DNA from: an uncultured Myxococcales bacterium
GTDB taxonomy: Bacteria; Myxococcota_A; Polyangia; Haliangiales; Haliangiaceae
DNA length: 64,000 bases
Direction: 5' to 3'
Assembly (NCBI GenBank): GCA_938004865.1
Contig: CALKVT010000188.1
Location: 28,862-92,861 of the forward strand
A program made the translations under genes and the position numbers. Shown here piece after piece: positions 26,486 through 29,714 of this stretch. The notes below the pieces were generated by a model. That model was not told where the DNA came from and searched no databases. It saw only the letters and a list, made by a program, of their open reading frames with translations. Position 1 is the first letter of the stretch. Every line of letters begins with the position of its first letter.

Positions 26486-27241
26486 ATGCCCCTCGATCGG
26501 ACGCCGATGCCGCTCTCGCAGCGCGCCCGCTGGGCGCTGGCCGCCAGCGCGGCGGTCACGGTCGCGCTCTACCTCATCCCGTACGGACAGTACGTCGCGT
26601 ATCCCCTGCTCCTCATCTCCACGCTCGTGCACGAGCTCGGCCACGGCATCGCCGCGGTGCTCGTCGGCGCCGACTTCGTCGAGTTCAAGATGTGGAAGGA
26701 CGGTTCGGGCGTCGCGATGCACACCGTGCCCGGCTCGGACGCCGCCCGCGCGTTCATCTCCGCCGGCGGGCTGTGTGGGCCAGCGGTCGCGGCGGCCGGG
26801 ATGCTGTACGCCGCGCACAACGCGAAGTGGGCGCGGCTCGCGCTCGGTGCGTTCGGCGCCGCGCTGGCGCTCGCGCTCCTCCTCGTCGTGCGCAACGGCT
26901 TCGGCGCCATGTTCACCGGAGTCCTCGCGGCCGCCGCGCTGGTCATCGCGATCCGCGCCAGCGCGCACCTCGCGCAGGTCACGCTGCTCTTCCTGGCCGT
27001 GCAGCTCGCGCTCTCGGTCTTCTCGCGCGGGGACTACCTGTTCAAGCAGTGGGCCGAGACCACGCAGGGGCGGATGCCGTCGGACAGCCAGCAGATGGCC
27101 GAGGCCATGGGCGGCGCCTACTGGTTCTGGGGCGGGGCGTGCGCGGTGTTCTCGGTGGCCATGCTGCTCGTCGGCGCGGTCGCGTTCTGGCGCGGGACTC
27201 ACCCGAAGTCGAGCGTGAACGCCTCGCGCGCGACGTTGTAG
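26486..27241 (+). CDS. Peptidase M50B-like integral membrane zinc metalloprotease
   Basis: Y-x(7)-HELGHG-x(3)-A motif on a TM helix (YPLLLISTLVHELGHGIAAVLVGA), about 6 TM helices, 251 aa, matching the M50B-like family. Confidence 0.7.
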   Translation: MPLDRTPMPLSQRARWALAASAAVTVALYLIPYGQYVAYPLLLISTLVHELGHGIAAVLVGADFVEFKMWKDGSGVAMHTVPGSDAARAFISAGGLCGPAVAAAGMLYAAHNAKWARLALGAFGAALALALLLVVRNGFGAMFTGVLAAAALVIAIRASAHLAQVTLLFLAVQLALSVFSRGDYLFKQWAETTQGRMPSDSQQMAEAMGGAYWFWGGACAVFSVAMLLVGAVAFWRGTHPKSSVNASRATL

Positions 27242-29714
27242 GACGCGCGCGGCAGGCGCAGCGCCCACACCGCCTCGACGAGACACGCGGTGATCGGGAG
27301 CTTGTCGCCGGCGGTCGGGTACACGTCGACGACCTCGTCGTAGGTCGACTCCATCGCGAGCGTCACCTTCCAGCCGGCGGCGGGCGCGTGCTTCGCGACA
27401 CAGGCCCGGGTCGCGTCGGCGAGGAGCGACTTCGGGTCGGGCTTCTTGCGCGACGAGGCCGCGCCCATCCGCACGCTCGGGACCAGCGTGCCGCGGCCGC
27501 GTCCCATGCCGCCGCCGCGCCCCTCGATCCCGATCGTGGAGGGCCGCGTGCCGGGCTCGACCGCGAGGTACGACGTCACCGGCGAGACCGCCTTGCCCAT
27601 CAGCGCGACCTTCATCATCTCCTCGGGCGAGAGCTCCTGGTGATCGTCCTCGGAGAAGACCCAGCCCGCGGCCGCGACCGAGAACGCGCGATCGACGGCG
27701 ATGGTGCGCCGGAAGCGGTCGCCCCAGATCATGCCGGTGACCTCGACCTTCGCCGGCGCGGTCGCGTGCGCGACGACGATGCGCACGCCGGCGCCCTCGT
27801 CGAGCACCGCGGGGAGGGTCTGGTCGTAGCGGCCCTTCTCCAGGTCGAAGCCCTTGATCGCGAAGTGATCGATCCGCACGGGGCGCACGAGGCCGAGGAC
27901 CAGCTTCGGCAGCTCCTTGCCGAGGTCGCTGCCGCCCGAGAGCACCGCGGCGATGCCGTGGTGCGTGAGCGCGAGCTCGGCGAGCGCGTGGTCGTCGTCG
28001 CGCTCGAGCGCGAGCTCGCCGCCGCCGCGCGGACTGGCGTCGACGACGTGGACCACGGTCCCGGCGGGGATGCGGGCGAGCGCGGCCAGCGCGTCCTTGT
28101 TCTCCCACCGCTTGCGCAGGAGATCGTCCGTGGTGAAGACGACGCGCAGCGGGCCCTTCTTGCCGGCGAGGGCGGCGGCCGCGGCGCGCGCGCCCTCGTC
28201 GAGCGCGCTGCCGTTGCCGGGCGCGAGCTTGCCCGCCGCGGCCGCGGTCGCGAGGCGCGCGTCGAGGTCGGCCGCCGGCACGAAGCTGCCGAAGAGGCGC
28301 GTCGCGTGCCGACGGAAGAGCACGAGCTCGACCTGCGCGTCGGGCACGTGCGAGAGGTAGGCGCGGACCAGCGCGAGCTGCATCGCCACGCCGGCCTCGC
28401 CCATCGAGTGGGACGCGTCGACGGCGAACACGACCTGCGCGGCCCGGGGCAGCGGCGCGAGCTCGGGCGCCGCGTCGAGCTCGAGGCGCCCGAAGGCGTG
28501 CGCCGGCGAGGCGACGACCTTGCCGAGCCGCGCCGCGACGACATCGATCGGCGGCGGCGCGATCTCGATCATCGCGACGCCGCCGTCGGACGCGTTCTCG
28601 GGCGCGTCCGGCACGAACACCGGCGTGTCGGTCGACGCCAGCTTGACGACCTTGCCGTCACCGAGCTGGAGCGTCCAGCGCTCGAGGGTGCCGGCGTCGA
28701 GCGCCGCGTGATCGGAGACGACGAGGCGCCAGGTGCCGGCGCCGGTCGTCTTCGCCGGCAGCTTCAGGTCGAACGTGCCGCGCACGTCGTTGTCGCCGCC
28801 GCCCTCGCCGCCGAAGACGTCGACGCGCATGTTGGCCGGGGTGTAGAGCGCGACGCGCAGGTCGCTGCGGTACGTGTGCTCGATGTCGAGCGTCAGCTTC
28901 GCGGTGGTGAACACCGCGCGCGTCGCCGGCGTCGCCTTCACCTCGATCGTGCTCGCGGCGTAGCTCGCGTCGGCCTCGTGCGGGATCGCCTCGAGCCAGT
29001 CGGGGACGACCGGCGGCGCCAGCACGACCGGCGCGTCGGTCGCCGAGCGGACGCCGTCGAGCTTCATCATCGTCGTCGCGTCGGCCCACGCCGGGCGCAC
29101 CGTGAGCACCGGGGTGGCGAGGTTCGGCGCGACGTCGGCCGACGGCCGCGGGTACGAGAGGAAGACGCGGCCGCCGCTGTAGCGGGTCGGGACCGTGAGC
29201 GTGTACTCGACCGTGCTCGTCGAGCCGGGCAGCACGGGGAACACCTGGAGCGCGAGCTTGTCGGCCCACCGCCAGTAGAGGAGCGCCGGGTCCTTCGGCT
29301 TCCAGATGCCCTTGCCGGTGAGCTCCTGGTAGAGCTTCGCCGCCTGCTCTGCCTCCATCAGCTCGCCGTCGTACCACTGGCTGCGCGCGCGGATCCGGAG
29401 CCCGGTCGCGGCGGCGCCGTACGGCAGGTCGATGTCGAGGCGAGCCTCGTCGGCGATCTTGCCCGGGTTGGCGAACACGCGGCGGACGCGGTAGAGGGCG
29501 ACGCCGTCCTCGATGGTGACGTCGACGGAGTGCGACGCCTCGAACAGGTGCTGGCCGAGCGTGCTCTCCAGCTCGTCGGCGCCGGCCGGCGCGGCGACGA
29601 CGGAGGTGACGGCCAGCACGGTGACGACGACAGCACCCGGAGGAGCGCGCACGAGGGGTACGACACCACACGCGCCTCGGGGTTTCCGGCATAATGCCGC
29701 GCGGAGGGAATCCA
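27199..29714 (-). CDS. secreted VIT (vault protein inter-alpha-trypsin) + P-domain + von Willebrand factor A domain protein
   Basis: N-terminal signal-like segment, then VIT domain (LYRVRRVFANPGKIADEARLDIDLPYGAAATGLRIR...), a proprotein-convertase P-domain-like segment (GTFDLKLPAKTTGAGTWRLVVSDHAALDAGTLERWTLQL), and a vWA MIDAS (FAVDASHSMGE...TDD). Start is ambiguous (ATG 29714 or internal GTG near 29654). Confidence 0.8.

Follow-up and report, generated by a model that had tools for sequence, protein, structure and literature searches.

The poly(ADP-ribose) polymerase of vaults (vPARP) is a cytoplasmic protein that contains a VIT and a vWA domain, BRCT and PARP catalytic domains, and a C-terminal INT domain. 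It is this INT domain of 162 residues by which vPARP is bound to the major vault protein (MVP); VIT and vWA are separate domains, and their role in vPARP is not known (PMC7916137). MVP homologues in Myxococcales have been described before (bioRxiv 10.1101/872010). Here, we analysed a stretch of 64,000 nt (hereafter "the window") from an uncultured Myxococcales bacterium (assembly GCA_938004865.1, contig CALKVT010000188.1), in which the gene for a VIT/P-domain/vWA protein, the subject of this study, is located close to the gene for an MVP homologue. The original prediction for this locus held that VIT and vWA tether vPARP to MVP, which is in fact the task of INT; VIT and vWA alone are no vault signature, because vPARP binds MVP through INT. 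A VIT-vWA/MVP partnership in bacteria would, if true, hint that vault accessory proteins predate eukaryotes.

Secreted VIT-vWA proteins are a known class in bacteria. The families TIGR03788 (marine sortase target) and TIGR04477 (XrtN-sorted VIT proteins) have in common with the protein studied here a signal peptide, the order VIT then vWA, and an envelope or extracellular location, which in our case is predicted. In contrast, its scores against these families are only 29.3 bits (cut-off 551.65) and 24.4 bits (cut-off 250), respectively, it has no C-terminal sorting signal, and its P-domain insert is foreign to both families. In the inter-alpha-trypsin inhibitor heavy chains (ITIH), e.g. ITIH1 (PDB 6FPY) and ITIH4, the C-terminal region undergoes cleavage and becomes attached to chondroitin sulfate by an ester bond. 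The protein is only 13-15% identical to them in sequence, does not have the ITIH C-terminal region, and differs from them by a P-domain between VIT and vWA, a Gly-rich linker, and a small C-terminal domain with two Cys. Its order VIT/P-domain/vWA is a variation on the known class and represents an uncharacterised family.

We regard it as probable that the protein is an exported, stand-alone VIT/P-domain/vWA protein of the Kofleriaceae (Myxococcota), that it is of an adhesin or matrix type, and that it is not a partner of MVP. The parts of this reading differ in strength: export together with the lack of a relation to MVP is very likely, and the chances of an adhesin- or matrix-type role specifically are about even. 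The second of two outcomes considered in the original prediction, i.e. that the protein is located outside the cytoplasm and acts independently of vaults, has gained support from a leader found in 108 of 108 family members and from the lack of an enrichment near MVP genes; as far as the tools used can tell, these are the two findings that, according to the original prediction, would speak against a vault association. Nothing at this locus supports a vault complex of eukaryotic type in bacteria. A well-conserved secreted ITIH-like family with an unusual P-domain insertion is of modest relevance to myxobacterial surface and matrix biology.

Domain architecture and fold

Long spurious open reading frames (ORFs) are common in the window, because its G+C content is ~73%, and reading frames were picked by codon-position G+C. 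The ORF of the protein is located on the minus strand and extends at most over 27199..29874; its G+C values at the three codon positions, 0.73/0.52/0.96, represent a coding pattern. The features of the gene and its product are as follows.

27199..29652, minus strand: coding sequence, 817 residues plus stop codon, with GTG as the most likely start (other upstream starts: ATG at 29715, TTG at 29874)
29578..29652, minus strand: predicted Sec (signal peptidase I) signal peptide, residues 1-25, with predicted cleavage before D26
29203..29535, minus strand: VIT domain (Pfam PF08487), a beta-sandwich in the predicted structure at residues ~28-170
28663..28902, minus strand: proprotein-convertase P-domain between VIT and vWA (Pfam PF01483, P_proprotein)
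27853..28443, minus strand: vWA domain with a Rossmann-like fold, Pfam core 28126..28434
28405..28419, minus strand: MIDAS motif DxSxS, D412-A-S414-H-S416
27538..27582, minus strand: post-vWA motif PVTSYLAVEPGTRPS, residues 691-705
27451..27534, minus strand: Gly-rich disordered linker, residues 707-734
27202..27435, minus strand: small C-terminal alpha/beta domain, residues 740-817

VIT and P_proprotein were detected with Pfam scores of 42.3 bits (cut-off 26.5) and 50 bits (cut-off 21), respectively, and the VWA_2 score of 25.5 bits is slightly under the cut-off of 27. Within the family, no variation is seen at the P-domain residues G306, W308, L310, D314, D319 and G321 or at the core residues of the motif GTWRLVVSDHAALDAGTLERWTLQL, which forms the C-terminal part of the P-domain. 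The P-domain-like beta-sandwich insert that had been noticed from the sequence was borne out by the Pfam score and also by a separate Foldseek match over ~165 residues, about the size of a P-domain, to the P-domain-bearing serine protease of Aeromonas sobria (3HJR). The MIDAS motif is joined by the further MIDAS-type residues N480-G481-S482 and D509. In an alignment of 108 sequences, D412, S414, N480, G481, S482 and D509 are invariant and S416 is nearly so, suggesting that the site binds a metal. Also invariant in these 108 sequences are P691, V692, T693, S694, A697, E699, P700, G701, R703 and P704 of the post-vWA motif.

An AlphaFold2 (AF2) model calculated from the 108-sequence alignment has a pLDDT of 90.4 and a pTM of 0.85. 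In this model the chain starts with VIT and further beta-sandwiches, followed by the P-domain, the vWA domain, a return beta/alpha region that leads to PVTSYLAVEPGTRPS, the linker, and the C-terminal domain. The best whole-chain match found with Foldseek is inter-alpha-inhibitor heavy chain 1 (6FPY), with E=2.7e-23 over ~742 alignment columns. The inserted domains and differing domain orientations keep the TM-score versus 6FPY low, at 0.25-0.32. The next matches are integrin beta3, the pilus-tip adhesins SpaC and PilB, and anthrax-toxin receptors; by sequence, the vWA domain of ITIH4 is the sole relative in the PDB (E=1e-5). The protein shows the features that were tested for an ITIH-like VIT-vWA protein, i.e. 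VIT, a downstream vWA fold, a MIDAS motif, an ITIH1-like chain fold, and a predicted signal peptide.

The linker has a pLDDT of <50, and its length and sequence vary across the family. The C-terminal domain behind it has a pLDDT of ~95 in the full-length model, and only 64 in a single-sequence AF2 model of this domain alone; no Pfam, NCBIfam or PDB sequence match to it was found. Its two Cys residues, C751 and C790, are invariant, and 103 of 108 members have exactly two Cys in the mature protein, both in the C-terminal domain, as would be expected for a disulfide formed outside the cytoplasm. Protease, PARP and BRCT domains were not found in the protein by Pfam and NCBIfam, and no INT-like region was detected by Pfam and PDB sequence searches.

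A database search yielded 481 homologues, and the description of the family is based on the best 120 of them. These are ~800-850 residues long, with P0087 (1133 residues) as the one exception, and their identities range from 99% down to 50%. VIT and P_proprotein are present in all but one of the best 120 homologues and VWA_2 in most of them. The named sources among the matches listed are all Kofleriaceae, Myxococcales or Myxococcota metagenome-assembled genomes (MAGs). The source annotation is "proprotein convertase P-domain-containing protein", and "subtilisin-like proprotein convertase family protein" and "P-domain-containing protein" are also used. P0087, which is encoded on a 4.4-kb contig, looks like a kinase/VIT/P-domain fusion and could be taken for a receptor-kinase architecture. 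It is probably an artefact of frameshifted read-through, because the junction is rich in Arg, Ser and Pro, as in high-GC sequence read out of frame, and because the VIT part still has a signal peptide of its own.

Conserved leader peptide and proposed function

The GTG at 29652, from which the protein would begin with MRAPPGAVVVTVLAVTSVVAAPAGA and continue with DELE after the predicted cleavage site, is most likely the start codon, based on the alignment of the family N-termini and on the boundaries of a gene-sized indel in a related locus (L001, see below). The upstream ATG is less likely, as the presequence would have 46 residues versus a family median of 21 (108 members), and it would overlap with the ATG of a divergent gene. 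This in-frame ATG is located at 29715; position 29714, which had been taken for the start, is instead where the ATG of the divergent lipoprotein gene on the plus strand begins, and a CCATGG palindrome is common to both ATGs.

Export was judged by rule-based statistics on 108 aligned N-termini, using alignments of 29 and 108 members. The N-termini follow a pattern of Met, at least one basic residue, a hydrophobic stretch of 10-15 residues, A-x-A, and then an invariant Asp. In 104 of the 108 members, a basic residue (Lys or Arg) is found ahead of the hydrophobic core. Position -3 is occupied by Ala in 94 members and by V, S, G or T in the others, position -1 by Ala in 102 and by Gly in six, and position +1 by Asp in all 108. 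No Cys that could belong to a lipobox is present near the cleavage site of the protein, and only four of the 108 members have one. The C-terminus is a folded domain without a hydrophobic tail. These values argue for export of the protein via a Sec/signal peptidase I leader that is conserved in 108 of 108 members, in line with the N-terminal hydrophobic leader and the possible extracytoplasmic location noted originally. The N-terminus of the MVP homologue (MDERNQKRDLVL...) contains no stretch similar to a signal peptide (maximum 9-aa hydropathy 0.91), and MVP probably stays in the cytoplasm, because it has no N-terminal hydrophobic segment.

According to the mechanism that we propose, the protein would be made with the Sec signal peptide, exported through Sec, and cleaved by signal peptidase I after Ala25. 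Outside the cytoplasm it would fold into an ITIH-like (integrin-beta-like) module. The MIDAS of the vWA domain could then bind an acidic residue of a ligand via a divalent cation, and the beta-sandwich of the P-domain as well as the disulfide-capable C-terminal domain would probably add surfaces for binding or anchoring. Cation-dependent ligand binding is suggested by analogy with the structural neighbours, i.e. ITIH, integrins, pilus-tip adhesins, LapA, and ANTXR. The most likely role would be metal-dependent binding of proteins or polysaccharides, with the periplasm, the cell surface and the extracellular matrix as possible sites.

The alternative that survives best, though still unlikely, is that the protein is a periplasmic sensor or regulatory module and not an adhesin, so that ligand binding would feed signalling through the Ser/Thr kinases and two-component systems encoded nearby. 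Clustering of flanking ORFs revealed that a Ser/Thr kinase family is the commonest neighbour of the family (14 of 75 loci, e.g. L085 and L091), followed by enoyl-CoA hydratase and GH63 glycosidase families with seven loci each; two-component genes flank the gene for homologue P0034, and combinations of vWA and kinase themes are common in Myxococcota. However, kinases are extremely numerous in Myxococcota, and 14 of 75 loci with variable position and orientation count for little. The clustering retrieved no conserved neighbour family that accompanies the gene, no transmembrane segment or partner is conserved, and the apparent kinase fusion P0087 looks like a frameshifted read-through. Ligand binding by an exported adhesin- or matrix-type protein remains the preferred reading.

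Relationship to the MVP gene

The surroundings of the gene in the window comprise the following features.

26486..27241, plus strand: Peptidase_M50B gene (Pfam 124.5 bits), convergent with the VIT/P-domain/vWA gene, 3' ends overlapping by 43 nt
29714..30724, plus strand: lipoprotein gene, 336 residues, start MALLRALIVSLSFAVVISC with a lipobox (VISC), divergent from the VIT/P-domain/vWA gene and located between it and the MVP gene
30743..33259, minus strand: MVP homologue (paralogue A), 838 residues, MVP_shoulder 89 bits and Vault_3 34 bits (Pfam)
51379..53922, plus strand: second VIT-vWA gene, 847 residues, VIT 110 bits and VWA 52 bits (Pfam), no P-domain, 18 kb from the MVP gene

The lipobox and the MVP_shoulder and Vault_3 matches corroborate that MVP is one small lipoprotein gene away, as the original prediction had it. 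The convergent orientation given there was in error: the VIT/P-domain/vWA gene and the MVP gene are both located on the minus strand, i.e. they are co-directional, and the gene that converges on MVP is that of the lipoprotein. The two minus-strand genes cannot share a transcript, because a gene on the opposite strand separates them.

A scan with an MVP alignment, with one genome per species, yielded 80 MVP loci, retrieved with flanks of up to 10 kb per side; 79 of these loci are labelled as, or resemble, Myxococcota MAGs. Orthologues of the VIT/P-domain/vWA gene were found at only three of the 80 loci (L003, L004, and L005) by tblastn and the family HMM. The MVPs of these three loci are 88-91% identical to that of the window. 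The Peptidase_M50B and lipoprotein genes as well as a 186-aa ORF occur at all three, and a photolyase-like gene, an abhydrolase gene, and a 739-aa gene are each present at some of them. A fourth member of this syntenic block, L081, was reached via the homologue P0018. The L081 copy of the VIT/P-domain/vWA protein is 67% identical to that of the window and the MVP copy is 89% identical, and the two do not appear to evolve like a co-adapted pair. The lipoprotein gene adjoins MVP, and the Peptidase_M50B gene adjoins the VIT/P-domain/vWA gene, only in the syntenic clade.

The closest relative, with an MVP 96% identical to that of the window, is locus L001 (Kofleriaceae MAG_26). This locus does not contain the VIT/P-domain/vWA gene, and tblastn revealed that its M50B and lipoprotein genes are only 37 nt apart (L001 5231-5268). 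The segment that is missing there is the following.

27205..29667: 2463 bp, i.e. the coding sequence (from the stop codon to the GTG at 29652) and a 15-nt leader

In the alignment of the junction, CACCC microhomology flanks the missing segment. The C-terminus of M50B differs in L001 and ends shortly past the junction. The gene is retained in more distant relatives, which makes a deletion of gene size the likely cause. MVP has thus been kept at this locus without the VIT/P-domain/vWA gene. The lipoprotein gene is also kept there, and it is not part of the function of the VIT/P-domain/vWA protein.

A metagenome scan with the family alignment yielded 79 loci of the VIT/P-domain/vWA family. Outside the syntenic clade, MVP was found near none of 80 family loci, 44 of which have at least 2 kb and 16 at least 5 kb of upstream sequence, with flanks of 510 kb in total. 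Members that are 65-66% identical to the window protein, i.e. as near to it as the linked copy of L081, are among the family loci without MVP. For the homologues P0034 (62% identical) and P0074 (54%), the gene neighbourhoods are unrelated; their contigs are 826 kb (L084) and 1.02 Mb (L085) long.

The co-occurrence of VIT-vWA genes with MVP within 10 kb was also quantified, and no enrichment emerged. A VIT HMM detected six VIT genes in ~1.13 Mb of MVP flanks at the 80 loci and two in ~0.57 Mb of control DNA, one at L123 and one in the window (51379..53922). The control density predicts ~4 VIT genes in the MVP flanks (Poisson P(≥6) ~0.2). The six genes stem from only two or three lineages, i.e. 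three orthologues of the VIT/P-domain/vWA gene and a FecR type at L028, L039, and L071, and 74 of the 80 loci have no VIT gene near MVP within the sequence retrieved. We conclude that the adjacency to MVP is local synteny inherited in one narrow clade and not a vault partnership.

The second VIT-vWA gene of the window resembles the VIT/P-domain/vWA gene in having VIT and vWA and a similar length, but it lacks a P-domain. The VIT HMM, which was built mainly from the VIT/P-domain/vWA family and three FecR-VIT sequences, gives it only 30 bits, and it belongs to a different family. VIT-vWA genes are frequent in this genome, as this second canonical one occurs in the same window. The FecR type comprises FecR-VIT-VWA_3-TPR proteins of 1700-1900 residues, which are encoded divergently from MVP paralogue A, 2-4 kb upstream of that gene.

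L028, 2344-8043, minus strand: FecR-VIT-vWA-TPR gene
L039, 291-5993, minus strand: FecR-VIT-vWA-TPR gene
L071, 2477-7585, minus strand: FecR-VIT-vWA-TPR gene

A gene of 224-257 residues, possibly for a sigma factor, is located beside the giant FecR gene in L028 and L071. No FecR-VIT gene was found in the related loci L011, L030, L036, and L076.

Several points weigh against the reading of an exported protein that is independent of MVP. The case for export stands on sequence rules and conservation. A search of the protein for a lipobox, MYXO-CTERM, PEP-CTERM, and a T9SS CTD revealed no anchoring signal, so that a periplasmic and an extracellular location cannot be separated. The background density of VIT genes stands on only two control genes. 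In addition, the FecR-VIT-vWA-TPR proteins are unrelated to the VIT/P-domain/vWA protein, so that VIT-vWA near MVP arose at least twice, and a genuine, if loose, functional tie therefore keeps a small probability. In its explicit form, this alternative attributes to such a tie the occurrence of VIT-vWA near MVP paralogue A in no fewer than two and perhaps three Kofleriaceae lineages that are unrelated to each other, namely the VIT/P-domain/vWA family in the clade of the window and the FecR type in L028/L039 and in L071. Envelope VIT-vWA proteins might, e.g., pass a signal through the membrane to an SPFH-like MVP scaffold close to it. We consider this very unlikely.

Slightly less probable still, and already close to refuted, is a vault-type partnership, in which the VIT/P-domain/vWA protein would be tied physically or functionally to the neighbouring MVP as a bacterial counterpart of vPARP. 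The gene is located within 1.1 kb of MVP in the window and in L003, L004, L005, and L081, a different VIT-vWA protein is encoded near MVP in L028, L039, and L071, and VIT and vWA do occur in vPARP. In contrast, the conserved Sec signal and the two-Cys pattern face an MVP with a signal-less N-terminus, and the two genes belong to separate transcription units. The gene is exactly missing from L001, which keeps MVP, none of the 80 family loci outside the clade has MVP, and 74 of the 80 MVP loci have no VIT gene within the sequence retrieved. Furthermore, vPARP binds MVP via INT, and neither PARP and BRCT domains nor an INT-like region were found in the protein by the searches described above. Least probable of all is that the protein is a secreted subtilisin-like proprotein convertase, as the JGI/NCBI names and the shared P_proprotein domain suggest: neither an upstream Peptidase_S8 nor any other catalytic domain is among the Pfam/NCBIfam matches, the whole chain is explained by VIT, beta-sandwiches, P-domain, vWA, and C-terminal domain in the AF2 model, and the match to the Aeromonas protease covers only the ~165 residues of about a P-domain.

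Neighbouring genes and MVP paralogues

Pfam and NCBIfam scans of the lipoprotein gene (29714..30724) gave no match. A search for defence systems with PADLOC gave no match for any of five proteins, i.e. the VIT/P-domain/vWA protein, the second VIT-vWA protein, MVP, M50B, and the lipoprotein. Between the divergent VIT/P-domain/vWA and lipoprotein genes, an intergenic region of 61 nt (29653..29713) holds the inverted repeat GGCATAATGCC, the CCATGG with an ATG on either strand, and a GGAGG ribosome-binding site that belongs to the lipoprotein gene. This region is conserved in L001 despite the absence of the VIT/P-domain/vWA gene there. A promoter and terminator scan of 26300-33600 retrieved nothing over the shuffled expectation, and an Rfam scan of the window gave no matches. 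A tRNA-Ser(CGA) predicted by ARAGORN at 21592..21674 (plus strand) is probably a false positive, as it is located inside the coding ORF 21013..23715 and has no support from Rfam.

Only one of the 80 MVP loci, L038 (LFCU01000241.1, "Candidatus Achromatium palustre", 64% identity), is attributed to a named organism that is not a myxobacterium, and its placement may result from contamination, mis-binning, or lateral transfer.

Many of these genomes contain a second MVP paralogue (B), which is 51-56% identical to the MVP of the window. At 10 of 21 paralogue-B loci (L055, L057-L060, L062, and L065-L068), where its identity to the MVP of the window is 52-56%, it directly follows rtcB on the same strand with gaps of 31-172 nt, and rtcR is located divergently upstream; L056 has rtcR alone. 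RtcB is an RNA ligase and RtcR a sigma-54 activator. Locus L057 is an example.

L057, 7074-8651, minus strand: rtcR
L057, 8753-9973, plus strand: rtcB
L057, 9983-12463, plus strand: MVP paralogue B

At five further loci, all from the clade of the window (L063, L072, L073, L075, and L077), paralogue B begins 1-38 nt past a tRNA array on the same strand. The arrays contain 24-26 genes in L072, L075, and L077, where enough upstream sequence is available, and 11 are seen in L063 and L073. They span ~18 amino acids.

L072, 3104-9999: tRNA array, MVP at 10001-12532
L077, 2666-9963: tRNA array, MVP from 10001
L075, 143-5425: tRNA array, MVP from 5429

The setting of paralogue B next to rtcR/rtcB or tRNA arrays suggests an RNA-linked (RNA-repair) role of bacterial MVP, and this context is a more valuable lead than the VIT/P-domain/vWA protein itself. 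RtcB or RtcR in combination with the major vault protein was not found in the literature searched. SPFH/Band-7 scaffolds are said to have been reported in RtcB repair systems by Burroughs and Aravind in NAR in 2016.

The MVP of the window has no kinase neighbour. At ten other loci (L011, L016, L019, L028, L030, L034, L036, L039, L071, and L076), MVP paralogue A is followed on its own strand by the gene for a conserved Ser/Thr kinase of ~385 residues, 71-87% identical between loci (e.g. L028, 12401-13561, plus strand). The distance between the kinase gene and MVP is 28-212 nt at six of these ten loci and up to 2.9 kb at the others.

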